Positions 3,155-55,762 of a DNA stretch of 64,000 nucleotides are shown here, one piece after another. The notes below the pieces were generated by a model that did not search any database, was not told the DNA's origin, and saw only the letters and a list, made by a program, of their open reading frames with translations. The DNA comes from Sphagnum compactum. Lineage: Eukaryota. The number at the start of each line of letters is the position of its first letter. The first letter of the stretch is position 1. The translations under genes were made by a program, and so were the position numbers. The stretch covers positions 32,602,213 through 32,666,212 of the forward strand of contig OZ234493.1 of assembly GCA_965153455.1 (NCBI GenBank), in the 5' to 3' direction.

Positions 3155-3190
3155 TTAGGGTTTAGGGTTTTTAGGGTTTAGGGTTTAGGG
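3155..3190 (+). repeat. Interstitial plant telomere-type repeat, about 5 x TTTAGGG
   Basis: ttaggg tttaggg tt tttaggg tttaggg tttaggg read directly. Confidence 0.85.
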
Positions 3191-12900: not shown

Positions 12901-13522
12901 TGTCGTGCACTATGGTATCAACATCCAATGTTATCAAAACTAAACAAAAATCAATGCCATACACATGAAAACATGTACACAAATTTTAAAAACTCACCTA
13001 CAAATTGCAGGAATCCAAGTTCAAAACAACAACAAAAACTTTAAAGCGACACTGTGGGGATAAACCCCCCAAATACACAAAAAATGGAACCTCATTTATA
13101 CTACACATGGTTCAAACCACACATGGCAAACTACATAAACTAATTTTTTTACAATAAATACTTAACAACTATCATGGACTACTAGATTAGCACCCAACTT
13201 TGTTGAAACTTACAAAACCACACACATGAAAACATGCACACAAATCCCCCCTCCTTAGCTAGGGTAAAAGGTCCTCCTACACCATATAATTAAATCTACG
13301 ATAAAATAAAACATGATATGATAAAGTAATTCATGAAAAGAATTTGGCCCCTAATGCTATGTGATCAATAAACCAGGTGCAATGTGAGCCCCATCATTAA
13401 TCGCACAGTCACAATCCCTCTTATTAAACCAAATTCCAACCTTTTTAAAATCACCCATTGTCCCAATCAAGAACATGCCTATGTCTTGATATGAAGGCTT
13501 AACATGAAACAACAAAACATGT

Positions 13523-13666
13523 TTATTTGGTGCATTATGGACACACCCAATTTCCTATGGGAACCTCTAAAAGTGGTGGTGTCCAACAACCTATATGCCA
13601 TCCTCTAAAACAACGATCACAAACCAACCTAGTTGTTGCACCTTGTGATTATTTGCACAACATGCA
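13523..13666 (-). pseudogene. Decayed PHD finger at the integrase C-terminus of the older element
   Basis: Manual translation gives CMLCK*SQGATTRLVCDRCFRGWHIGCWTPPLLEVPIGNWVCP*CTK* (C4HC3 pattern with two internal stops). Confidence 0.85.
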
Positions 13667-14500
13667 TTGCAAACATGCTAGAACTATGGCCAATGATGGA
13701 TCCACTTGGCCATCCACATGCGAAAGGTGACATGGAACACAATTCCACACATGGTTTTTCCATAATCAACCATCCCGACCTTCCAACAACAAAACCCTAG
13801 AAAGTAAAACCTTTTCATACAAAGAATGACACACCCAACCATCACATTTAATGTGCTAAGTGTTGTATGTTGCAAATAAACATAATCCTTAGGTTCAAAC
13901 CTTAAAACCTTGGGTCGATATCCACATCCATGGATGGTGGCATATCATAATGTAATATTTTGATGTTATGCAATGGCCAAGTTTTCCATAGCCATCACAT
14001 GGTTCTTTTGAACAAGGCTACATATTGCTCACAAGCTTGGACCCACACATTGGGATCATCCAAATTAACCACATAGTCCACATCCCTACAAGTGGATGCC
14101 AATAATTGGGGTTCATGCCTAAAAGGCAAAAAGTAATAGGAAAATGATGCAAGGGATGTTTGCTTGCTGAATCGATATCCCATGGGCAACAATGGTAGTT
14201 ATATGTCCCAATCAATTATATGCCCCTTTTGTAATCCATATTTTTGCAAACCTTTTTTCACCATCTGTACCATTCTTTTAGCTAAACCATTCACTTTAAA
14301 ATGATCACAAAAAGTAATCCTATGGCTGTCGTGACGTGTAGTGTCGTGACATACAGTGTCGTAAGGTGTACATTCATAGGAAACTCTACTAACAAAAAGA
14401 CTAAAGCCAGTCAAAGATATAAACTAATCAACTAAAAAGAGATACATGCACACATATATATACAATGCACACGTGAGACTGAGATGAAATTCTCATGTAT

Positions 14501-14508
14501 CCCCCCCC
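14501..14508 (-). other. Polypurine-tract candidate (G8 on the - strand) just downstream of the integrase-PHD stop
   Basis: C8 run at 14501-14508, about 40 bp past the TGA at 14550 and about 175 bp from the element end. Confidence 0.55.
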
Positions 14509-14549
14509 AGACCTGAGCCGGGAAAAGCATGGCATGGTCTGAGTAGGAA

Positions 14550-15620
14550 TCAAGGTGCTGTAGGAGAACATGACGAACAGTACCAATTGCCAACGGGAAC
14601 TTGAGTGAGCTCCGGCTTGAGGCAGAAGAGATGGTATCCACCATTACAGTTGTCGCAAAGCAGCATCTGATCAGCATCGTCCGTCCTCTGACATACCTGA
14701 CATGGATAATCAAGTGGAGGAATCCAAGTCGACGTGATGATGGTAGGGTCCAAGTTTGGCAGGTGGCAAGGCGCACAATTTTTGGAATGATCCCGAATTG
14801 TGCGTCCGTCAGCTCCTTGTAGCTCCAACACACCTGAAGGCCTGATCGCCTTAATCCTCAAGATGGTGCGACCGGAAGAAGTGTCTAAAGTATCATTGGG
14901 TTGTCGCTGAAGATACACAAAATCACCAACATCAAATTGTCTCACCTTAGGTTTGTAACTGCCACCTCGTGTGTGTGCATACCGTAAGGTGTCTCGATGT
15001 TGTGCAATGGACAGGTTTTCCATGGCCATGGGCATAACCCTCCTGAATAGAGCGGCCCTTTCTGCAATGACCTTAGCCCAAATGGTTGGGGAGTCCAAGT
15101 CCACAACTTGGTCCATTTGAGCAACAATGGAAGAGGGTGGAATGGGATGTCTCCCAAAAAGTAAAAAGTAAGGGGAGAAATGAGATAAAGAGGTGTGTTT
15201 GGACATCCTGTAACCCATGGCGATGTAAGGGAGGGCCAGGTCCCAATCCTCTTTGTTCTTAGTGAGGCAAATCTTCCGAAGTCCCTTCTTGCATGTTTGA
15301 ACCATCCTTTCTGCAAGGCCATCAGCTTGGGGATGATCTCTTGAAGTCCGACGATGGTCAATGAGAGCATGGTCAAGTAGGTCTTGGAATTCTCCCCTGA
15401 ATTCTGATCCTTGATCAGTAAGGCATTCAACACAAGCCCCAAACCTACTTAGAACCTGTTGTAAGAAAGCCTGGCTAGTGCTGTGTGATGACTTGTCCGG
15501 TAGCGCAACAAGTTTGACCCACTTTGAAAAATGCTCAATCATAATCATGATGTAGACATTACCCCTGGAGGTCTGTGGTAATTCTCCAGCTAAATCACAT
15601 GACCAGCGATAGAACATGCC
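14550..15620 (-). CDS. Integrase catalytic core plus C-terminal PHD finger (3' part of the polyprotein, after a frameshift)
   Basis: DDE motifs WSCDLAG, LTDQGSEF, DGLAERMV. Also SPYFLLFGR and FDVGDFVYL. PHD CQVC...LLCDNC...YHLFC...WYCSSC at 14568-14702. Confidence 0.92.
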   Translation of the reverse strand, partial: GMFYRWSCDLAGELPQTSRGNVYIMIMIEHFSKWVKLVALPDKSSHSTSQAFLQQVLSRFGACVECLTDQGSEFRGEFQDLLDHALIDHRRTSRDHPQADGLAERMVQTCKKGLRKICLTKNKEDWDLALPYIAMGYRMSKHTSLSHFSPYFLLFGRHPIPPSSIVAQMDQVVDLDSPTIWAKVIAERAALFRRVMPMAMENLSIAQHRDTLRYAHTRGGSYKPKVRQFDVGDFVYLQRQPNDTLDTSSGRTILRIKAIRPSGVLELQGADGRTIRDHSKNCAPCHLPNLDPTIITSTWIPPLDYPCQVCQRTDDADQMLLCDNCNGGYHLFCLKPELTQVPVGNWYCSSCSPTAP

Positions 15621-18600
15621 CTCTCCAATGGTAATGAGGAGCGAGAAGGCTATAAGTACGCTTAACTCCAAAATGTCCAAGCTCCGAGTGTACTTTCTGA
15701 ATAAGACCAGGCCGTTCATGTGGTGGTGGAACCACTCTGTCGCCTTGTGGTAAGCATCGGACGAGGTGATTGTCCCTCCATGAGTAGCGTTTGGATCGCT
15801 GTTGTATGCGATCCCGCTGACTTGATGTAACTTGGGGAGGGTATTCCCCATGTTGAAGAAACCCCAGAGTGTCCAAGTCCTCCCATATATCCAGAATGGG
15901 ATGCTCAACCAGGTTACATTGCAGTAATGCAAGATAACTAGATGCCTCAGATACATGTATTGCTGGGATCTGGTCAAAATCTTGCCTGGCTTCTGAAAAA
16001 TCTTCAGAGGTAGTGAGGGGTCTTCGTGACATGGTATCCGCATTCTGATGTGTAATACCTGGTCGGTGAATAACCTTGAACTCATACTCTTGAAGTATAA
16101 GCGCCCAACGAGCTAACTTACCAGTAAGCTTATCGTTGGTCATCAACCACTTGATAGGCTGGTGGTCCGTATACAGAGTGAAATTGGTGCCATAAAGATA
16201 GGGCCTGAAATGTATGACGGCCCATACAACAGCAAGGCACTCCCCCTCGTATGAAGAGTAGTTGCTCTCAGCCTTGTTGTTGCTTCGAGATGCATAGGCG
16301 ATAACATATTCCTTGCCTTCCTCATCAAGTTGGCCCAGAATAGCTCCAATACCAAGAGCACTCCAGTCAGTGTGTAGAATGAAGACCTTGCTGAAATCAG
16401 GTCTTCTTAGAATGGGGAACTCTGAAAGCTTTTCCTTGAGTGTGTTGAAAGCTTCCTGAGCCTCTTCACTCCATGTCCAAGCAACATCCTTCTTTAACAA
16501 TGCATAGAGAGGATGAGCAATAGTACTGAAGTCTTGGACATAAATCCTGTAGTAATTACATAGTCCGATGAAGCTCCTCAAAGTGTGAACATCAGTAGGA
16601 TCGGGCATCTCCAAAATGGCTACTACTTTGGCCCAATGAGCCATAATACCATTTGGCAAAATTCTGTGTCCAAGGTAAACTACTGAGGTGACAGCAAACT
16701 CACACTTTTTAGGATGGATCTTCATATTGACTTCGTGGAGCCTCTTGAATAACTCCTCAAGATGAGCCAAGTGCTGTAGGAGTCCCTTGCTATGCACTAG
16801 GACATCATCTATGTAGCATTTCAGGAAATCTGCCCCTTCGAGAACTTGGTCCATGACTCGTTGAAAGAAGACAGGTGCATTCTTCAATCCAAAAGGCATC
16901 ACAAGCCATTCCCACAACTTATTGCTTCCATGGAATGCTGTTTTCTTGCGATCTTTTGCAACGAGCACAATCTGGTTGAAGCCTTGCCTCAGATCCACAA
17001 TTGTGAAGATGTTTGAGTCTCCAATGCTATCAAACAGTTCTTCAGGGATGGGCATGGGGTACCTGTCTTGAGGTGTAACCAGGTTCAAAGGCCTATAATC
17101 CCCGCACATCCTTTTCTCAGTCCATAATCCAGCTGAATCCTTCTTTGCTGGCATTACTGTAGCGGCTGCGAAATCAGAACTTGATGGCTGAATGAGACCA
17201 GCCTCATGGAGCTCTTTGCATCTTTCATCTACCAATTCCCATTCATGTTTGCTCAACCTATGCCTCCTTCGATAAACGGGTGTCTCATCTGTAAGGTCTA
17301 TAGAGAACTGCATGGTCTTACACCTACCTAAGTCTTTCATTGAGAATGCGAACACATTCTCATACTTAATTAGCAAGTCTGTGACCTGGTCTCTCTCCTT
17401 CTTGGTGAGCTGGTTCCCCATAACAAAAGGGTAGTTGGAAACACATGGAATGGAGTTGGAAAGTGTGTTTGAAGAACCTGATGTATTGGGTTCTCCATTA
17501 TCCAACTCCGTAGATTCGTAGAAGGTTGTAATTGTTTCTCCAGAAGCTGATGTACCTCCAGGTGTATTGGACATAACTTGAGTCAAATTACATGGTACCT
17601 CCTCCCCCCCAACACTGAGAGTGAAATGTAGAGTGTTGAAGATAGGCAAGTGTACTTGGTCGGGGTGCCATGTGGTTGCATCGTCAGAGCTGCAAGCTGA
17701 TTGAGTCAGTGTTGGTGTTGTGTACATTTGAAAGAGTACACAGGTTACCAATAACCATGTAAGGGAGTTCAGGTCCATGCTTCTCCCGAGTAGAGCGTTA
17801 CGCTCCAATCTAGTCACCTTGGTGTGACTAGTAGTGCCAGTTTGGAACCCCATAGCCCTTTCTCTTTCTTCTGGGCTTGGTTCATCCCAAGTGGCTGAAG
17901 CATGACGATACACCAAGCCTGGTCCATCTCCCTGAAAGGCGTGTGCTCCAGGGAAGGAGACAAAGGTGGGCCAAACACCTCTTGGTTTTCCTATTGTATT
18001 CGCAGGAAACCAAGGAGGTTTCTCTTGCCTTGTAACTGGTTGGCAAGAGCTCTGATCATCCAATATGTGAGAAACCTGCAGGTTGTGGTCTCTGATGGTG
18101 TATCTCAGAGCCAACTGCAGAATTGAAAGTGGTGCAAGGTTGGTCCACCAGTTGCGCAGCTGGTGCGCATAGGAACCGCATTGTGCCGCATCGAGTAGGA
18201 GTGGCTCTCCAAGGTAATGTTTGACAAGTGTGTAGTGCTCCTGGACTTTCTCCCTCTGGTCAAACTGAGAAGGGGTGTTCTCAATTACATAACCAAGCGT
18301 AGGGGAAATGGATTGAGCCCAGGTAATCAATCGTACCATGTCTGTGAAGAGACCGGATCTTGTGTCACTCAAGCCTTCTCCAAATCCAGCTGCTGAAAAT
18401 CCTTGACACTCCCAACCTGAAATGATGAGGTCCACGGGGCCAAGTAATTCCATATGCTTATTCTGAATTAATTGTATGTCAGGGGGCAAGAAAGTGAAAC
18501 TGGCCTTCCATGCGGTGGTTGTAAACTGTTGTGGAAATCTGGTTGTGAGCTCCATCATTCTCGATGCTGCCACTTGCCTTGCAATAGGATCAATGTCTAC

Positions 18601-18705
18601 GTAGAAATACCTTCGGACCACCATCCCTGACTGTAGTAGGGCTTCGAGACCTGTACCAATACCACCAAAGAGCTCTAGTAATGTAATCCCTTCCTTAGGT
18701 GGTGT
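15621..18705 (-). CDS. Pol segment: DNMT3-like C5 cytosine methyltransferase (~17745-18687), reverse transcriptase, RNase H and integrase N-terminus
   Basis: MTase motifs I LELFGGIG (upstream of the ORF-track start), II [53 protein letters not shown]...LLGRSM. RT has CGDYRPLN, DLRQGFNQ, MPFGLKNAP and YIDD (16804-16815). RNase H has LHTDWS, EGECLAV, YTDH. Integrase HH is VHSELGHFG. Confidence 0.92.
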
Positions 18706-20010
18706 CTAGGTGATTAGCTGACGGAGTAATGGCTTAATCGGTTCGCCATGGCTCTCCATGCTTTCAAAACTAGACAAAGCTTTGACCAAGGGCTTGTAGG
18801 CTACTTTGAACCTTTGTAAAACCTCTGGTCCATGTTGAATGTCAGTAGGAACCACCCTCAAGCTTTCAGTAGCTTGAGCGTAAGCTATCTCTTCTTCATC
18901 TCCCTCTATCCATTCGTGGCTAGCTTGTTGGATGTAGGAAATGGTGTGTGCTTCCTTGAGCATACAATGGTGAGCCATAGGACTATGGTTCCCATGTAAA
19001 TCAAGGGGTATGTATCCCAGGTGGTGGCCATCAGTCTCCCAATCCACTCGGTAGTACGCATGTTCGAACCAATTGTCAATTGTAAAACCTGGTGGAAACA
19101 GGGCCTCTTGCCCAATGAGCACATCGTAACTAGTGGCATTGGTGACTAAACATCTGACCTGTAGGCAAAGCTCCTGATCTGTACCTTCATTGAAATTAAG
19201 TGCAATCAAATCCGAGCTCTCCCCAAGTACCTCCTCTACGCTCCCACTAGCGGTGCGAATGTGCCACATAGATTTTCGTAGTTTGGAGTCGAGCATGCCC
19301 ATCTTCTTGGCGAATTGAACTCCAAGAATCACTGGTTGGGCACCTGTATCAAGAAGAACCACTCTGGGTGTATGTCCTCCCACCTGGATTGCTGACTTAG
19401 TATTGTCGACAATGGCAACTCCGGTGGCGATGGAAGTTCTCTCACTAGGCACCACCTTCAGAAATGAGTGAGAGACTTTGTGGAGAGAATGGCTATCCAC
19501 AACGCCTTTGCTGAGTAACAAATCCACAAGTGAGGTGTTCTTAACTCCCTTTTGATATGTGAATGTAGAATCAGAGGTAGGAAAGCTCACTAGTTTAGCC
19601 ATGCCAGAACTAGTGACTAGATTACGAACGCCATCTGCAACACGTGAACCAATCGAATGTCTCTCCAAGGTGTTGGATGGGACCTCTGTAGCATGTGGAT
19701 TAGGGGTTGGTAGAGGACCTGATGTAGTGTTCAAGGTATCCTCTAAGATTGCAATTATGTCCCTGGTGCTTAGCTTCAAATCTTGAAAACTAAACAATGG
19801 TGTATTCACAAGCTTTTGCGCCACTTCATGCATTTGAAGTTGGCATTCCATAAGCTGATCAGTGGAAAATTGTGTGTTTTCCTTATGTACATGTACTCCT
19901 GGGACATGAGAATTTGATGCCCTAACAGCTTGTGGTGTAGTAGTCTCCTCCCCCCTCGCCAACAAGGTGCCTTCTTCTTCCATGTTGAGAGGACGAAAAG
20001 ATTGTGGCAT
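18706..20010 (-). CDS. Retroviral-type aspartic protease segment of the polyprotein
   Basis: VLLDTGAQ active site, IRTASG flap and YDVLIG. Same frame as gag and pol, separated from each by a single stop codon. Confidence 0.88.
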   Translation of the reverse strand: MPQSFRPLNMEEEGTLLARGEETTTPQAVRASNSHVPGVHVHKENTQFSTDQLMECQLQMHEVAQKLVNTPLFSFQDLKLSTRDIIAILEDTLNTTSGPLPTPNPHATEVPSNTLERHSIGSRVADGVRNLVTSSGMAKLVSFPTSDSTFTYQKGVKNTSLVDLLLSKGVVDSHSLHKVSHSFLKVVPSERTSIATGVAIVDNTKSAIQVGGHTPRVVLLDTGAQPVILGVQFAKKMGMLDSKLRKSMWHIRTASGSVEEVLGESSDLIALNFNEGTDQELCLQVRCLVTNATSYDVLIGQEALFPPGFTIDNWFEHAYYRVDWETDGHHLGYIPLDLHGNHSPMAHHCMLKEAHTISYIQQASHEWIEGDEEEIAYAQATESLRVVPTDIQHGPEVLQRFKVAYKPLVKALSSFESMESHGEPIKPLLRQLIT

Positions 20011-20016
20011 GACTGC

Positions 20017-21852
20017 TCAAGCTCCTTTAGCCCTGGTAATAGGACTTGAACCAGATGCGAGTCCATCAGTTTGAATTACCTGCCTAGTGGCAGAAACTCT
20101 GGGTGCCACACTAGTTTCTTGTGCTGCGACATAGGAAGGGCAAAAAGAAGTAGCCAATTCTGGTGTGAGACTAGAATTGTGTGGAGTGGAAAGAACATAC
20201 TCCCCAACCATTGCATCGTGTGGAAGGCCATAGAACGACCTAGGAGGTCCCTCGCGTGATCCTGAACCTTGTACAGGTTGGGCATGACTAGCTGATTGGG
20301 AGGACTTGCCTTTTAGATTAGCAAGTTGGGCCCTCAATGATTCGAGTTCATTTTGTAAAGTCTGAACTTGAATTGCATGGGCTTGAAGCACCTCCCTCTT
20401 ATCAGCATTGTGCTCCTTCTTCTTAGCATTCTTGTTGGAATTACCCTTGGTGGGCAAAGCCTGAGTGGAATGCTGAGGTGCCTTGGCTTTTGGTTGAGGG
20501 ATAGTGGAAGATGCTGGCAGATTTTGCCATTGTAATCGGAGTTGCTTCCGCTCTGGGAACTTGGCAAAACAGACAGATTCATGATGTCCCTCTTTCCCAC
20601 AATAATCACAAAAGAGATCCTCGGAAGGAATGTTGCACTCACTAGCTTTGTGGGCAGGATTGCCACAGTAGTTGCAAGAAGGTAGGATGGGTGTAGCCGA
20701 GTGCACCGCTTTAGTCCTTGAAGAAGAATGTGATGATCTAGTTGGTGCAGCTGTTGTAGGTTGAGGCCTTGAACGTGATGGAGGCCTCATAGTACTGGCC
20801 TCATAGTGTGCATGAGCCAGTTCTAGCTTTTCGGAAATGTTGTACACATCCAGCAACGTGTACGAGTCTCCAAATTCTGCAAAGACTCGTTGCAAAACCT
20901 GTGCGTGGAGTGTTGGAGTACCTTCCAAAGAACGAAGATACCGATGGGCAGCTTCTAAGTCGGTGATGCTCTGGGTATCCTCTTTGAGTTTGAGAAGCCT
21001 CCTGTAAAGCATCTTGAGGGTTTCATCCTTCTGCCGAGAGAAGGTGGCGAGCTGCAGAATTTTTTCAGAACTTTTGACTGGAAATTCCAGCTCAAGAATT
21101 CGAAAGAATTCCCCCATTGGATCAACAAAAGCTGGCGCATCAATGGTGGGAGGAATGTTTGCAGTAGCAGCAATGAGTTGTTGAGGAGAGAGGTTTACCG
21201 AGGTAGGTACCGGGTCTGGATTATTCGGCACAGTCCCGTGATGTGCAATTGCAGCTTGTAATGCAGCTTGAGAGGCGGTGGCGATGGCTATGGCGTAAGC
21301 TGGATTGGGAGCTTGGGTGACACCCAAAATCCTTGCAGAATGTTGCTCGTAGACATCCAATGCCTCATAATGCACATAACGGGCCAATTGCTTAAATGCA
21401 AACGCTTCGGTGTAATTAGCACCATACTTCAGCTCCAACTCACAGACCACTGTTGAGAAAGTTGCCTTGAACTCCCTCAACGAAATAGTACCTGGCCTTC
21501 CGCTGAACTTCTCTATTCTCCCAGAGGAACTGCTGACCTCCATGGTGTATATGGGTGTTGAAGTCACAGCTTGCAACGGAGTATATGGTGATGGTGTGAA
21601 AGCAGGTGCAGTAGTAGGTGTACCCCACTGATTAACCCCTCCAAATGGGCTCTGGTGTGTTGTTGATGTAGTGTAACCCAAACCTGAATTCCTAATAGGA
21701 GTTGTACTAGATGATGATGGTGCTGTGGATGCTTGGTGATACCGTCGTGAGCATCGTGAACTCAAAGATATTGGTTCAAAGGGTTGTGTGTTACTTCGTA
21801 ACTGATACCTTGGCTCTGGATGAGTAATGCTACTTTCATCATCCGAGGACAT
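20017..21852 (-). CDS. Gag protein with two CCHC zinc knuckles
   Basis: 611-aa ORF with IEKFSG, RQKDET-type capsid-like motifs, and knuckles CNYCGNPAHKASEC and CDYCGKEGHHESVC. Confidence 0.88.
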   Translation of the reverse strand: MSSDDESSITHPEPRYQLRSNTQPFEPISLSSRCSRRYHQASTAPSSSSTTPIRNSGLGYTTSTTHQSPFGGVNQWGTPTTAPAFTPSPYTPLQAVTSTPIYTMEVSSSSGRIEKFSGRPGTISLREFKATFSTVVCELELKYGANYTEAFAFKQLARYVHYEALDVYEQHSARILGVTQAPNPAYAIAIATASQAALQAAIAHHGTVPNNPDPVPTSVNLSPQQLIAATANIPPTIDAPAFVDPMGEFFRILELEFPVKSSEKILQLATFSRQKDETLKMLYRRLLKLKEDTQSITDLEAAHRYLRSLEGTPTLHAQVLQRVFAEFGDSYTLLDVYNISEKLELAHAHYEASTMRPPSRSRPQPTTAAPTRSSHSSSRTKAVHSATPILPSCNYCGNPAHKASECNIPSEDLFCDYCGKEGHHESVCFAKFPERKQLRLQWQNLPASSTIPQPKAKAPQHSTQALPTKGNSNKNAKKKEHNADKREVLQAHAIQVQTLQNELESLRAQLANLKGKSSQSASHAQPVQGSGSREGPPRSFYGLPHDAMVGEYVLSTPHNSSLTPELATSFCPSYVAAQETSVAPRVSATRQVIQTDGLASGSSPITRAKGA

Positions 21853-22092
21853 GGTGTTGTCCCATGCCCCAAAATTTTGTACTAATATAATCCCTCAATT
21901 ACAAAATTCTAACACAATGTATGGTTTGAATCTCCCTAATTGCAGGACGATAGTATGGCAGAATGTAGCAAGATAAGCTGCAAGACACAAGACCACACAA
22001 TGCACGACCACAGTGCGAAGAACACAGGAAACAGGACTGCAGTACAGTAGTACGTAGGACGCAGGACGGCAAAGCGCAGGACGGCAATACGG

Positions 22093-22350
22093 TGATGTCA
22101 GCAGTGACGTAGGCAGGACGCAGGACGAAAACACGATGACGTCAACAGTGACGTAGGACGACAGGGCGCAGGACAGCAGTACGGTGACATCAGTAGTGAC
22201 GCGGAAGGACGGTAGTACGATGACGTCAGCAGTGACGCAGGAGGACGGCAGCACGATGACGTCAGCAGTGACGTAGGCAGGACGGCAACACGATGACGTC
22301 AGCATTGACGTAGGCAGAATGGCAACACGATGACGTCAGCAGTGACGCAG
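22093..22350. promoter_or_regulatory. Tandem array of seven as-1/ocs-like elements (TGACGTCAnnnnTGACG) in the retroelement leader
   Basis: Units at 22093, 22137, 22185, 22221, 22257, 22294 and 22331. Each has two TGACG-type half sites exactly 12 bp apart, as in CaMV as-1. Confidence 0.7.
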
Positions 22351-22416
22351 AACAGTCCGACGAACGTCGACGGAAGTCGGACGGACCAAGGTCGCAGCGA
22401 TGGTGCTGCAGCTCGC

Positions 22417-22960
22417 AACGTTGCGACGCTGCGGCGCTGCTGTGGCAGCGTGCTGCTGAAGCGATGGCGCTGCGGCGCTGCACTGCTGCTGCAGCGTAGG
22501 CGCTGCGGCGCTGTTGCTGCACTGCTGCCGCAGGGATGGCGCTGCGGCGCTGCACTGTTGCTGCAGCGCTGCACTGCTGTCGCAGGGATGGCGCTACGGC
22601 GCTGTTGCTGCGGTGCTGCACTGTTGCTGCGGCGCTGCGGCGCTGTTGCTGCGGTGCTGCACTGTTGCTACGGCGCTGCACTGTTGCTGCAGCGATGGCG
22701 CTGCGGCGCTGTTGCTGCGGCGGTGCTGCTGCGGCGGGGCTGCTGCAGCGATGGCGCTGCGGCGCTGTTGCTGCGGCGGTGCTGCTGCAGCGATGGCGCT
22801 GCGGCGCTCTTATTGCGGCGGTGTTGTTGCAAGCGCTGTTGCGGCGGCGGTGCTGCTGCAGCGATGGCGCTGCGGCGCTACGACGCTGCAGCGTTGTGGC
22901 GCTGTAGCTCGCGGCAACGGCGGAACGCAACGCCCTGCGGCGCTAGAGCTCGCTGCTGCG
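22417..22960. repeat. GC-rich degenerate repeat island (gcggcgct / gctgca / gcgatggcgct units) in the retroelement leader
   Basis: Many copies of gctgcggcgctgcactgttgctgcagcgatggc-like units, very dense in CG and CWG. Confidence 0.85.
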
Positions 22961-23107
22961 AAGTGATGGCAGGCGGCGCTACGCTGCCCTGCAGCGATGG
23001 CAAGCGGTCGGCGCCGCAATTCTTGTTTTTTTTTTTCTTTTTTTTCGACAACTTGAAGAGAGAAAAAGAATGGGAGAAAGAGAGAAGTTTTGACACCTGA
23101 TCTCTAA

Positions 23108-23612
23108 TGTCTCGACTTCGTTTGTCCCTGCTTGGTTGGTTGTAAGAAACGCAAAGCTCCCTCCAACAACACCAGTAGCAACAGTAGTAACGCGCTCCTT
23201 CCGGCAACAACAACACGAGTAGCAACAACTCAAGAATTTCAAAAGCACAAGAAATCTGTTGCTTTCAACATGAAGCAACAGGGAATATAGTTTTTCTAGA
23301 ATTGAAAATGCAAAGCAAGAAAGAAATGAAATGTATGTAGACGGTGGCCGTGCAATGGCCGCTGTGAGCATCTAGAAATCCTAGCTTATGATGGAGAAAA
23401 CTCCTAACAAAGGAATTCTAGAAAAACTAAAGGAGAAGGGCAAAGCTTGGCCCTTTTATACAGCCACCAAAGCTGAAACCCTAAATACCTAATAGCGTAC
23501 AGTCACTTATGAACGCACATTAACCCTACAAACGTACATTAGCCCTCAAAAGACATGATGGGCATGCCCGTAGCCGGCCATCATGTATGAGGCCGTGCAT
23601 ACGGGCATGACA
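23108..23612 (-). promoter_or_regulatory. 5' LTR-like module (505 bp, TGTC...GACA bounded) with TATA box and no 3' counterpart
   Basis: On the - strand it begins TGTCATG (23612), contains TATAAAAG (23460-23453) and ends GTCGAGACA (23108). Confidence 0.55.
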
Positions 23613-26339
23613 TGGTTAATTAGAGCTTGCCAACACAAATTTTGAATTTTTCTTCCAAATTTCGTGCATTAATCCATGAATACTTCTATTGGAACACTAA
23701 ATTTACTCAAGAAAAACTTCGTGCCCTAATCCATGAGTACTTTTGTTGGAACACCAAATCTACTCAAGACCTAATCTAAAAATGCATAAATGGCCCTCTC
23801 ATTATTTTTGTCTCAAATGGTGGCAATTCAATCCACTTCAAAAAATGTTCAATCATAACCAACACATAGTAGTTATGATGAACAATAAGCTTAATGGCCC
23901 AACAAAATCCGAGCTCCATTGGTATCCAAGCCCCATGATTGGTAGAGGTTGTAAATGAAGGGTGGGTGCATTAAATGAGGCATGAACCTAGTCACACACT
24001 ATGCATTGTGAACCTCCATTGAACCTCCAATTACATGCCTTTCCACTAATATTGGCCTTGAAGCAAATTGTAGGTTTGACGTATCCCAAAATGTCCCAAC
24101 TCCTATGGGTATGTCTCACACTGCTTTCTCACATTTTTGGTCATGGTACCACTTGTACATGCTCATCTTGCCATATCCTGAGAAGGTGTTGGCCTTTCCA
24201 ATGATATCTTTTGGCCTTTTGAAGAACCCAATCTTTTTCCTTGAATGTTAATCCTACATCCAATTCCCTTATTTGTAAATAGGTCAACATTTGGGCATCC
24301 CCAAAGATGTCCATAGATCTAATGTCATCAAGTTTAATTTCCAAATTCCTAGAAGTGCCTAAAGGATTCACTTGAACTTGACATGATACCTCTTAGCAAC
24401 CATTTGCCATGATGCAAATAAATGAAACAACATGCCAACCAAACACTATCTCCAAATCAATTTCCCCATGCCAACGTGCTCCAATGGTGTCCAAATCACT
24501 AGCACTTGGGTTCCTATTCAACCCATCCACATCCTTATTAACTATCATGGCCCAATGTTTGGCATCAAAATCATATTCTTGAATAATGAAAGCCCATCTT
24601 GACAACTTCCCCATGAACTAGTTAGACTCCATGAGCCACTTCAATGGCTGGTGATCTATGACCAAATGAATGGGCTACCAAACAAATAACATGTGGCCAT
24701 GGCCCACACAATTGCCAAAAAATTCCCTCACATGAACTATATTAGGCCCTTATTTGGTTGTTGGACTAGCTTGCATAAGCAACCACAACTTTTGATTTTC
24801 CTCATTAGGTTGTATGAGGACTGTTCCAAGTCCCAAAACACTCCAATTTGTCTGCAACTGGAAAAGACAACCCCTAATAGGTCACCTCAAAATGGGTGCA
24901 GAATTAAACTTAATTTTCAACTCTTAAAATTTTTGTTCTTGTGCATCCCCCCAAATGAACTTTTCATTGACCTTGGTAAACTAGTTAAAGGTTTCGGAAT
25001 CCGACTAAAACCTTTGACAAATTGTCGGTAATAGTTTGCCAACCCAAAGAATGCTCTTAACCTACTAACATCAATTGGTCTTGGAACCTTGGAAATTGCA
25101 TCCACCTTGGCCTTTCGAATTCCCAAACCTCATGGGTAAATCATGTGGCCCAAATATTCAACTTGGGATTGAAAGAACTTATATTTTCCTGGGGTTTAAA
25201 CCATGCACCCCCAAACAGTCAAACACATTTTGCAAATGATGATTATATGTGCTCCTCCATGGTGGAATTAAACACAATGATGTTCTCAATGTAGCATGTG
25301 GCAAAATCCAAACTTGCAAGCACCCGATCCATCACCTTCTGGAATTCTATAAAGGCATTCTTCAACGCAAAAGGTAAGAATTTCCATTGATGTACAAACA
25401 ATCCTTCCCATTTTGGTCAATGCCCCATAATGCAATCTTCACCTTGTCATTTTCACAAAATGGCAATTGGTGATATCCAGATCATAAATCCAAAGCGTTA
25501 AACACCTTCGTATGGCCAATTAAATAAAAAATCTCCTTTAACAATGGCATGGCATATTTTTCTGGACATGTCATGTACACTTGTTGGTACGTCTATAATA
25601 TCCACACATCTAACATTTAATATAATTGCAAAGATGTCTTTTTTGGCAGGCGTATTGTGGCTAATGCATACTCCCCTTGAAAAAGCTCCACCAACCCTAC
25701 CTCTAAAAGTTCTTTTATTCGAGCTTTAACCAAAACTAATTTCATATCATTTAATTTGTAAAATCTTTGAAAAATAAGGGTATCATCTAAGCTAATGTGT
25801 ACTTCTTGCCCCTTGAATTTACCCAGCTACTTGAGGTTGAAAGCAAAACAATGAACATAATCATGTAACAATTGTCGCATCTTGCATGCCTCACTTCCTA
25901 TTACCATGAGATCGATTTTTGGTTCCCATGTTTCTATAATTGTAGGTGCCTTGGTATTGGATGGTGACTCATCCTTAATGCTCGAGGTTGAGGCTACACC
26001 TTATAATTGCTACATGAAGCCCCCATTGCATGTGCATCTGAAAGTCCCTTCACCTTCTTCAAACAAGTCCAAAATCTTGGATGCATTCATCATGTATGTT
26101 CCTCATTCCAAACATTGAGCATTCATGGCATCCATCACCCTTTCCCTTCGTGCAACATCCCATAATTGCCAAGGGTGTTTGGCCCATGTAGGATCACTAG
26201 ATGTGACCTTGTGATCATGCCACCCCCCCTACATGAATGCACTTGTCCCAATATGAAATGTAGGATAAGGTGAAGTAGAAAAATGGTTTAGTGGATGGGT
26301 AATTTACAATCATCGTTGTTCAACCAAACCTAGGTTAAT

Positions 26340-33644: not shown

Positions 33645-34680
33645 CCGGCCCTTACAACCACGGTCCCCGTCAAGCATGTAATTTGTCCCTTTGTAACCAT
33701 CGTCCCTTAAGCTTGAATGTTGGCCCTTACAACCATGGTCCGGCAAGCATGAAAATTCGTCATTCTTTACAACCATGGTCCCCCCTCAACCATGAAATTT
33801 GTCCCTTTATAACCATGATTATCCCTTAAGCTCAAATATTGTCCCTTACAACCACCACGGTCGCTTAAGCATGACTATCATCCCTTACAACAACCATTGT
33901 CCCTTAAGCATGAATATCAGCCCTTACAACCACCATCGTCCCTTATGCTTGAATATTGTCCCTTACAACAACCATTGTCCGTTAAGCATGAACATTGGCC
34001 CTTAAATATCCGTCCTTTAATCATGAATATCATTCCTTACTACAACCAGGTCCCTCCTACAAAGCATGGAATTCGTCCCTGAACAACCTTGCTGCCTCAA
34101 GCATGAATTTCGTCCCTTGACTATGAGTCCCTTAATCGTGGACTTTGTTCCTTGCAACCTTGGTCCTTCTGAAGCATGAATTCATTCCTTAACTATAGGT
34201 CCCTTAATCATGAATTTGTCCCTTATCTGGTTGGCTTTTTCACACTGCAATTATATTCATTCTCATTTCAGGTCAGACTGTGGTGAGTTGTGCTTCTCAT
34301 GTGGATGTCATATCACACGTCTGTCCCATTAACCATGGTCCCCCAAGCATGAACTTGTCCCTTAATCATGGTCCATTTAATTGTGAATTCGTCCCTTTAA
34401 GCATGCCCCCTCAAGCATGAACTTGTCCCGTGACTATGGTCCATTTAATTGTGAATTCATCCCTTAAGCATGGGCCCTTAAGCATGAACTTGTCCCATAA
34501 CTATGCTCCATTTAATTGTGAATTCATCCCTTAACATGCCCCCTCAAGCACGAACTTGTCCCTTATCCATGGTCCATTGAATTGTGAATTCATCCCTTAA
34601 GCATGGCCCTCAAGCATGAACTGGTCCCTTAACCGTGGTCCATTTAATTGTGAAATCATCCCTTAAGCATGGGCCCTTGA
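33645..34680. repeat. Degenerate minisatellite array (~35-40 bp units, gtcccttacaaccatggtcc...aagcatgaat)
   Basis: Recurrent cccttacaacca / aagcatgaa / ccatttaattgtgaattc cores over about 1 kb. Confidence 0.85.
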
Positions 34681-48559: not shown

Positions 48560-49300
48560 CTTGTGTTGTCCCCATCATGTTACTAGTGTTGCTCGTGGTT
48601 TGTCGGATTGCTAGCATTATTAGTTTATTGCATTGTTAGTGTTGTTGGTTTGTCATGTTGCTGGTGCATCACATTGTTGGTGTTATTAATGGTTCATCAC
48701 ATTGCTAGTGGTGCTAATGGCTCATCACATTGCTAGTAGTGCTAATGGTTCATCACATTGTTAGTGTTGCTTGGGTTTCGTCACATTATTAAAACTATTC
48801 GTGGTTTGTCATGTTGTTGGCGTTGTTATGGTTTGTCTATTACTATCGTCAGTTTGTCATGTGTTGGTGGTACTTTTGGCGCGTCACATTGCTAGTGCTA
48901 CTATTGGTTTGTCATGTTGTTGGTGTTATTCCTAGTGCGTCATGTTGCTAGTGTTGATGTTAGTGTGTCATGTTATTAGTGTTGGTGTTGGTTTATGGTG
49001 TTATTATTGTTCGTGTTGTAGTTTAATTATTGCATTATTAGTGTTGTCGTTTCTTCGCATCGTTGGTGTTACTTGTGATCCGTCGTATTGCTGGTGCTAG
49101 TGTTAGTTTGTCACATAACTAGTTTTATTGTTGATGCATTGCGTTGTTGATGTTGTTGATTCATCGTATTGTTGGTTTGTTACATTGTTAGTGTTGTTGT
49201 TGATTTTTTGCATTGTTGGTGTTATTATTGGTTCATCACATTTATGGTGTTGTTGGTTGTTCGCATTGTTGGTGTTATTGTTGGTTTATCACATTTATGA
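48560..49300. repeat. Low-complexity GT-rich degenerate repeat (tcacattgctagtg / gttggtgtt)
   Basis: Recurrent short motifs and no credible protein. Confidence 0.7.
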
Positions 49301-50976
49301 TGTTTATCTTTTGTTAGAAGATTTTTGTATTGTATAAATAATTATTATATTTAACCACATGTGTTTTGTTAACAAGTTCATGTTATAACTATGTTTAATT
49401 TGTCTCCCATTACAACGACTAAGATGGCAGCAGCCACAAATGACGTGGCAATGCAAAATATGCTTCTATTGATAGATAATATTTTGCCACATAAGACATG
49501 TCTAAAACCAGGGGGTAGGATTCTTAATAAAGGTGCTAAAAACTTTTTTTTTGCTTCAACACATGGCACACCAACCTTGGTAGATTTCTATACTTATGTT
49601 GAATTGAACAAAAACATTATTATCGAAAGTCCATGTGAATTAGTGGCATATAAGGTAGTAAGAGTGGAATAAATGTAAAGACATGGTAGAGGTAGAAAGG
49701 ATTTAGCTAGGTAATAAGGGTGGAGTAAATGCAACTTTAGGTTTAGATCATGAAAAAAATTAATAGTAGAAGGGGGAAAATGCAATTTGATTTGTTGACA
49801 ACATTCATTTGAAAGTTCATCCATTTTATTTAGATCATTCATTTTTTTCATCCAAGAAAATCGTTCATCGATGACACGTGGCAAAATAATCTTCCACATC
49901 ACCAAATATTTCTTTGACATCAACAAGATATTCTTGAAAAGATTCCTTTGGTTCATTTGTTTACACCCACGTGCTCACCATTCATGCTCACACGTTCACA
50001 AAATAGCACCCCTGAACCTAAAGCTATGAACCTAAGCAAGCTTACCTACCTAGGTTGACTTGGCAAAAAACCTAAAGCTAGGAATTTGGGCAAGCCTACT
50101 TAGGTTAACCTATTAGTAAAGTAACATATTTTAGGTATATTTAAACATACTAGATGTAGTAAATTTATTATGTCTAGTTAAGTAACTTAAAAAGTAACTT
50201 ATATTACAAAATAGGTTTTTACTAAATAGCCTATACATAGGTTAATTTAATAGATATGTTAACCTAAGCTAGTGTGTTAAATAGTTAAATAGTCAATGAG
50301 TTATGGGTCACCTTTTTCAAAATGATTATTAATATTGTAGTCATAATTATAATTAACAATAAATTGTTCAATACACATACACATGCATGTGAATTCATGA
50401 TTTCAAAAACATCATAGCACACCAAAAAAAATGGCATGCCATGACAAATATTGGTGCCATAAATTCAAAACACATAAAAAATCATGGACTGCCATGAAAA
50501 TTTGTGACACTTTGTTGCCATGCCATGTCATCATCACATGGAAGACATGGTCATTATTAATCGCAAAGGACAACAATATTTTCAACTAGTTAATAAATGA
50601 GATTAATTTATCAAATCAATGACATGAATCATGATGTCAAGTTAGTGTCACAAATCATGAGGTGTTGTGATTACTAGTCAACCTCGTTGGCATGTGGCAT
50701 GCCATGTCAACATCACACGACCATAAGTTGTTAATATTCACCAAAAGTTGCCAAAATGAATGGAATTTTGTTATTAACTAATTTTGGATAATTAAAAATA
50801 CATTAAAAATACATTTTTGATATTTTGATATTTGTGTAAAAACCATCAAATCATGATATCAACTATAATTACAAAATGATAATGCCATGTGGCACCATAA
50901 TGTCTTTTACAACTACATAGTCATTAACATGAACTTATAGTTATAATTATAGTAAAAAAAGACAATAGTCGTTTTA

Positions 50977-55414: not shown

Positions 55415-55762
55415 GGGGCACTATAACAAGGTGCCCGTCGTGCTTTTGCTGCCCATAATATTCTAGGTGCTTGTTCACCAAGAAAAACGGACTCTACTAC
55501 GAGGTGCCCATCATATTTTTGCTACCCATATTAATATTCTAGGTGCTTGTTCACCAAGAAAAACGGACTCTACTACAAGGTGCCCATCATATTTTTGCTA
55601 CCCATATTAATATTCTAGGTGCTTGTTCACCAAGAAAAAAGGGGCCCTATTACAAGGTGCCCATCATATTTTTGCTACCCATATTAATATTCTCGGTGCT
55701 TGTTCACCACGAAAGAAGGGCCCTATTACAAGGCGCCCTAATATTCTAGGATCTTGTTCACT
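55415..55762. repeat. Tandem repeat, about 5 x ~65 bp
   Basis: acaaggtgcccatcatatttttgctacccatattaatattctaggtgcttgttcaccaagaaaa repeated. Confidence 0.9.

Follow-up and report, generated by a model that had tools for sequence, protein, structure and literature searches.

The seven tandem as-1-like double sites at 22093-22347 of the window (the whole 64-kb stretch of Sphagnum compactum DNA analysed here) lie in the 5' leader of a dead Gypsy-type element, and they are restricted to one lineage within the family of that element. We hold with moderate confidence that this array is a lineage-specific leader minisatellite derived from one amplified unit, and that it would be nearly neutral or act, at the most, as an accessory downstream enhancer specific to the sublineage, and not as a core regulatory module.

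Inspection of 22093-22350 gave seven units of the form TGACGTCA-N4-TGACG(T/C) on the + strand; the element itself runs on the - strand, where the sense reading of the 36-48 bp units is (A/G)CGTCA-N4-TGACGTCA. When the 64-kb window was searched with the 17-mer TGACGTCAGCAGTGACG, allowing up to two mismatches, there were seven matches, all on the + strand (starting at 22093, 22137, 22185, 22221, 22257, 22294 and 22331), with no match outside the array in the 64 kb and none in 100 dinucleotide-preserving shuffles. The starts of the two TGACG cores are 12 bp apart in every unit, corresponding to an 8-bp box, a 4-bp spacer and a second box. Five of the seven first boxes are the perfect palindrome TGACGTCA, and the remaining two are TGATGTCA and TGACATCA, each one transition away at the central CpG; the second box, which occurs in the variants TGACGTAG, TGACGCAG and TGACGCGG, shows weaker conservation than the first box. 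The as-1 element is described as two variants of a TGAC/GTCA palindrome with 4 bp between them and a less conserved second box (PMC4677692), and because this grammar is satisfied in 7 of 7 units, the original prediction of seven tandem as-1/ocs-type units with half-sites 12 bp apart is borne out.

The repeat structure shows how these sites came to be so numerous. TRF reports a period of 37 at 22168-22347 (4.9 copies, 87% matches) and periods of 44-48 at 22058-22201, and in the unit alignment the units join end to end with lengths of 44, 48, 36, 36, 37 and 37. Since all seven sites descend from one 36-48 bp unit copied in tandem, their sevenfold recurrence represents one amplification and not seven independent events. 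TGACG pentamers are marginally high in the window as a whole (47 versus 36.4 expected), with 17 of the 47 inside the array. Other sizeable tandem arrays occur in what appear to be other repeats of the window, at 33652-34677 (periods 39/66), 48579-49305 (period 28) and 55416-55745 (period 76), and there is an internal run of the plant telomere-type repeat TTTAGGG at 3155-3190 (4.9 copies).

Differences between the units are few and unevenly placed. Only 2 of 91 cells at the 13 motif positions vary, versus 23 of 149 elsewhere in the units (spacer, post-core position and linker; Fisher p = 0.0008), which suggests constraint on the motif, or on a small hairpin formed by it, during array growth. 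The 17-nt cores carry five substitutions in total, two of them CpG transitions and three of them in the loop or spacer. It had been proposed that the two variant first boxes are products of CpG deamination and that they imply past methylation. The first part agrees with the single transitions at the central CpG, but past methylation is weakly implied, given that two of the five core substitutions are CpG transitions and that the observed/expected CpG ratio of the array is still 1.29 (compared with 0.49 in gag and 0.38 in pol of the window).

The host element spans 9,285 bp on the - strand (14327-23611). Its gag ORF (20017-21852, ATG at 21852-21850) encodes two CCHC knuckles, and pol (14550-20016) encodes an aspartic protease, a C5 DNA methylase, reverse transcriptase, RNase H, integrase and a C-terminal PHD finger, with Pfam matches to gag-asp_proteas, DNA_methylase, RVT_1, RT_RNaseH, Integrase_H2C2, rve and PHD. 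The ORFs at 21894-20017, 20016-18706 and 18705-15595 share a common frame, and that at 16112-14550 is in another; with two in-frame stops and this frame change, the copy is dead. That the element has its own methyltransferase, as was claimed, is supported by a partial match to the C-5 cytosine DNA methylase family in pol (PF00145, E 6.9e-8).

Both ends of the element could be placed. A conserved 5'-terminal block on the - strand (23200-23611) begins with the family 5' end GTCATGCCCG, and DNA reads with the same species label confirm this end at 23611/23612, with depth falling from ~173 to 0.2 across 23626/23627 and 140 reads continuing from 23612 into heterogeneous, unlike flanks. At the other end, 15-nt repeats on the - strand (14327-14370, TRF period 15) finish with the family 3' end ...ACGTCACGACA at 14327, which is common to L018, L044 and L072, three related loci that each have different flanks. 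Each of these 3'-terminal repeats holds ACGTCA (sense ...ACGTCAYGACACTACACGTCACGACA), conserved in 4/4 copies seen, and they may be an integrase end-recognition sequence. Around 5262-5320 of L044, the family 3' end (...CACGATA) adjoins the family 5' start (TGTCATGCC...) with ~2 nt between them, an arrangement suggestive of a junction of head-to-tail, circle or tandem type. The element in the window is inserted in the integrase gene of another retroelement, flanked by CCAT at 23612-23615 and 14322-14325, and the interrupted reading of its host (...ATT AAC CAT, 23620-23612) resumes with AGG ATT ACT from 14321. This second Gypsy-type integrase remnant is split into 23613-24600 and about 13500-14321, and contains a 57-bp tandem duplication at 23657-23769. 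Terminal direct repeats (LTRs) were not found by a repeat finder, BLAST self-comparison, end-to-end local alignment or shared k-mers, the local alignment of the two ends scoring 56 where shuffles averaged 42.4 and reached up to 73. We also found no DIRS-like split repeats in this copy.

Upstream of gag there is a TATA box, TATAAAAG (23460-23453 on the - strand; TATAAAAGG at 23460-23452 with the next base), which is at least 90% conserved in the 56-sequence alignment of the 5' block. Starting 31 nt past it, a 16-nt segment (23414-23429, - strand) is perfectly complementary to 23288-23303 on the same strand, its primer-binding-site-like partner. This spacing from the TATA box makes the segment the likely RNA 5' end and self-primer, and the pair fits Tf1-like self-priming of reverse transcription rather than a tRNA primer site. 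The array follows the conserved TATA box and likely RNA start (self-primer start at 23429) at a distance of 1.08-1.34 kb and precedes the gag ATG by 241-495 nt. Its place, downstream of the TATA/self-primer site and upstream of gag, makes the term leader used in the original prediction correct. Between the array and gag there is no TATA box apart from TATATTAG ~30 nt before the gag ATG; a TATA-less internal start in that interval is possible.

Read in the sense direction on the - strand, the leader contains a GC-rich minisatellite of CAGCGCCGCAGCGCCATCGCTGCAGC-type units (22400-22990) that is almost private to this copy, and then, directly 5' of the array, a single copy of a family leader repeat theme, 'CCGTCCGAC/CGTCGGAC' (22351-22400), which is tandem in related leaders. 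Beyond the array, a conserved block of ~80 nt (21853-21930) directly precedes the gag ATG and has stops in several frames. A coding reading of the array was ruled out: these stops part it from gag, the unit lengths (36, 37, 44 and 48) are not all multiples of 3, and the overlapping ORFs have no Pfam match. An upstream ORF of 8 codons (ATGGGACAACACCATG...) begins out of frame at an ATG located 10 nt before that of gag; it overlaps the gag start (21850-21866) and is conserved in 8/8 aligned copies. ATG is depleted on the sense strand relative to CAT, both in the variable leader of the window copy (2 versus 22 in the 1,292 nt of 21931-23222) and in 53 leaders from the best 80 of 554 relatives (479 versus 1158, observed/expected 0.75 versus 1.37). 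This avoidance of AUG is a further sign that the leader region belongs to the mRNA.

To compare leaders across the family, we took as relatives the best 80 of 554 gag matches in metagenome contigs, which share 75-93% amino-acid identity and may come from other moss species. Leaders were counted as complete if they had both the conserved 5'-terminal block and the ~80-nt pre-gag block, which left 56 among the best 80 of 554. Between the two blocks, these 56 leaders have a variable region of 420-1909 nt, and TRF detects tandem arrays in 51 of them, with different units and periods of 11-114. The repeat themes follow a fixed order: a GC-rich theme (...GCCATCGC...), then ...CCGTCCGTCGGAC..., then ...GTCCTRCGTCC.... 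In the window, the array is placed after the second theme and before the third, whose core is contained in the array unit. Units in two related loci, L002 and L015, have the same placement as those of the window, between the CCGTCCGAC theme and the GTCCTRC theme.

The double site itself is rare among these relatives. The composite (sense CGTCA-N4-TGACGTCA) was found in one of the 56 complete leaders, as one unit in L015; among the best 80 of 554 loci it is present in two (L015 and L002), leaving 78 of 80 where it is absent. Upstream of gag, four of the 80 loci have an intact TGACGTCA (three times in L002, and in L015, L038 and L069), and the decay-tolerant form TGAYRTCA is also rare (5 of the 56 complete leaders from the best 80 of 554). 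CpG decay could explain part of the absence of the composite from dead copies. In a gag tree, the window copy is sister to L002, with L015 in the neighbouring clade, so that, among the best 80 of 554 matches, the carriers of the composite are the closest gag relatives of the window copy. The predicted spacing is therefore kept among copies to the extent that L002 and L015 retain N4, but the composite is not a family feature. Since the family as a whole does without the units, the array is most likely nearly neutral or at most accessory.

Across 52 non-redundant leaders from the best 80 of 554 relatives, TGACGT is mildly enriched (28 versus 14.8 expected), and ACGTCA shows no family-wide enrichment (22 versus 17.8 expected). 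The consensus of the closest subfamily contains two single TGACGT sites, ~105 and ~195 nt before gag, both of which the window copy has lost. The most over-represented sense-strand hexamer in the same 52 leaders (best 80 of 554) is GCCATC/CCATCG, with 174 occurrences versus 12.9 expected, present in 49 of the 52 (compare 22400-22990 of the window).

DNA reads with the same species label, matched at 85% likeness or more with both mates summed, give depths of 210-330 over gag, 60-81 over the array, 1-18 over the GC-rich repeat and 114-197 over the 5' block. Array-like reads are thus present at about one quarter to one third of gag depth, and the reads and contigs of the organism include unit-number variants with forward jumps of 84, 68 or 115 nt or backward ones of 33, 47 or 77 nt. 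Taken together, this depth and these variants indicate that the array-bearing lineage transposed repeatedly, with variable arrays, and that the array is not harmful. Where the reads differ from the window, transitions predominate (C>T and G>A together account for 211 of the 397 places listed). From 21881 upward, 71 DNA reads agree (0.87) on a different sequence, which indicates a sizeable subfamily with another leader beside gag.

We propose that the family leader, from the TATA/self-primer block to gag, is a zone of short repeats that would be continually made, expanded and replaced, probably by reverse-transcriptase template switching or unequal recombination. Within this hypervariable, CpG-rich and AUG-poor 5' leader of an element that is not bounded by LTRs, a single 36-48 bp unit would have been amplified in tandem in a young sublineage, the expanding unit having by chance held a perfect group-D bZIP palindrome with a TGACG half-site 4 bp off. 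Unit number appears to have risen from one (L015) to three or four (L002) and then to seven in the window copy. In vitro, we would expect TGA-type bZIP dimers to bind such units. Three points count against a pure-minisatellite view, namely the TGACGT sites recurring in the closest subfamily, the low variation of the motif and the fact that the array has been transmitted.

Two known kinds of sequence come closest, namely the UTR regions with hypervariable tandem repeats in plant LTR retrotransposons and the as-1-like elements. The 3' UTRs of Tat/Ogre Ty3/gypsy elements contain hypervariable tandem repeats thought to arise during replication (Macas et al. 2009, cited in PMC7004042). These too are noncoding intra-element tandem repeats in which monomer sequence and length differ among related copies (PMC7004042), but they are located in the 3' UTR, whereas the array described here is in a 5' leader that is CpG-rich and AUG-poor and belongs to an LTR-less element carrying a methyltransferase. 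KnitGypsy-Dnmt3 of Klebsormidium nitens resembles the present element in having a Gypsy-type polyprotein with a cytosine methyltransferase domain in pol (placed here at the level of the Pfam C5-methylase family). Its repeat structure is DIRS-like and not LTR-like (de Mendoza et al. 2018, PMC5890265, Fig. 4 legend), and the present element may likewise depart from the ordinary LTR structure. KnitGypsy-Dnmt3 differs in that the main-text sections devoted to it do not describe a leader repeat zone or bZIP sites (PMC5890265).

The chief alternative to amplification of a nearly neutral unit is that the array works as an as-1-type enhancer, with TGA bZIP dimers on each double site, induction by salicylate, auxin, xenobiotics or oxidative stress, and loss of binding once the central CpG is methylated, perhaps by the methyltransferase that the element encodes. 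Judged from the motifs, the array may have some enhancer role, and we consider this full version of it unlikely. Its appeal lies in the grammar common to all seven units and to as-1 and as-1-like elements of the CaMV 35S promoter and early salicylate- and xenobiotic-responsive plant genes, i.e. two TGACG-box variants 4 bp apart with the second less conserved (PMC4677692), and in a first box that is the perfect palindrome TGACGTCA, the representative motif preferred by TGA/group-D bZIPs, a group whose TGA members are present in mosses (PMC9360754, PMC10163045). The lower variation of motif cells than of linkers (p = 0.0008) and the presence of the array lineage at tens of read-depth units in the DNA of the organism are also in its favor. 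Regarding the methylation switch, the element has a C5 methyltransferase domain, DNMTs of related retrotransposons methylate CG de novo (PMC5890265), and the 1989 paper of Iguchi-Ariga and Schaffner reports in its title that factor binding to TGACGTCA is abolished by CpG methylation (cited in PMC7880685).

Conservation and position, however, do not favor a stress enhancer or a feedback loop through the methyltransferase. The composite is missing from 55 of the 56 complete related leaders (best 80 of 554), ACGTCA lacks family-wide enrichment, and the copy in the window is dead. The as-1-like elements described in PMC4677692 lie shortly upstream of the core promoter, within ~135 bp upstream of the start, while the seven tandem copies described here, recognised from their sequence, are more than 1 kb downstream of the likely start and within the 5' leader, and most relatives (best 80 of 554) have not kept the composite. 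Among 11.9 million records of raw polyA RNA reads with the same species label, we found three partial matches, all in the GC-rich repeat, and none on the array. In this RNA, the family is silent. Contigs from moss metagenome RNA libraries cover gag and the 5' block and hardly cover the array, with DNA carry-over possible in those libraries. The tobacco retrotransposon Tnt1 offers a partial parallel in its BII boxes, which are tandemly repeated. These are likewise short factor-binding boxes in a retrotransposon regulatory region, linked in Tnt1 to defence-induced expression; they differ in being located in U3 upstream of the start and in being experimentally supported, whereas the sites of the present array are putative and lie in the leader.

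A role at the RNA level appears improbable to us. It would have the unit hairpins, or the 8-nt self-complementary palindromes, help, for example, with packaging, with dimerisation or with the way ribosomes handle an AUG-free leader of 1.6 kb. Six of the seven units do fold as one hairpin with a 6-bp stem and a 4-nt loop, the three core substitutions in loop or spacer are consistent with such a structure, and the depletion of AUG on the sense strand marks the leader as being under RNA-level constraint. These single-unit hairpins are weak, however (-2.8 to -6.2 kcal/mol, z from -0.19 to -1.54), and the whole array folds no better than shuffled sequences (z = +0.52, with 68 of 100 shuffles folding at least as well). 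Rfam gave no family at its gathering score, all sub-threshold matches falling in the GC-rich repeat and none in the array. In addition, binding by bZIP factors predicts the same pattern of conservation, and the units are missing from most relatives (best 80 of 554).

We give little credence to the idea that the role of the CpG-dense leader is to attract methylation, for instance if the element's methyltransferase favored it as a substrate on new cDNA, so that CG density and not the bZIP motif would matter. The variable leaders do have a median observed/expected CpG ratio of 1.14, compared with 0.57 for the 5' block and 0.51 for gag (n = 55, best 80 of 554), in line with the value for the array; this is notable in a family that encodes its own C5 methyltransferase, and self-methylation of cDNA has been proposed for such elements (PMC5890265). 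Yet the composition of recently expanded repeats can account for the high CpG content, and the more diverged copies have lower leader values (0.53-0.92 in several of L071-L079), as plain decay predicts. It is also very doubtful that these ideas combine, in which case the repeat zone, CpG-island-like and free of AUG, of a family that encodes a methyltransferase would have given one sublineage seven CpG-centred as-1 double sites that act as a stress-responsive downstream enhancer shut by cDNA self-methylation, i.e. a methylation-gated brake on transcription.

Were the array to function as a methylation-sensitive enhancer, the methyltransferase of a retrotransposon would be tied to the transcription of that same retrotransposon, a new kind of self-regulation. 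Under the preferred explanation, a lineage-specific minisatellite, it illustrates that a perfect-looking array of transcription factor sites can come from simple unit amplification in a fast-changing leader, and that recurrence within a tandem repeat is not evidence of function. Gypsy elements that carry a methyltransferase in early land plants are still poorly understood, and the CpG-rich, AUG-poor and hypervariable leader, the conserved TATA box, the self-primer pair and the lack of LTRs provide handles on their biology.
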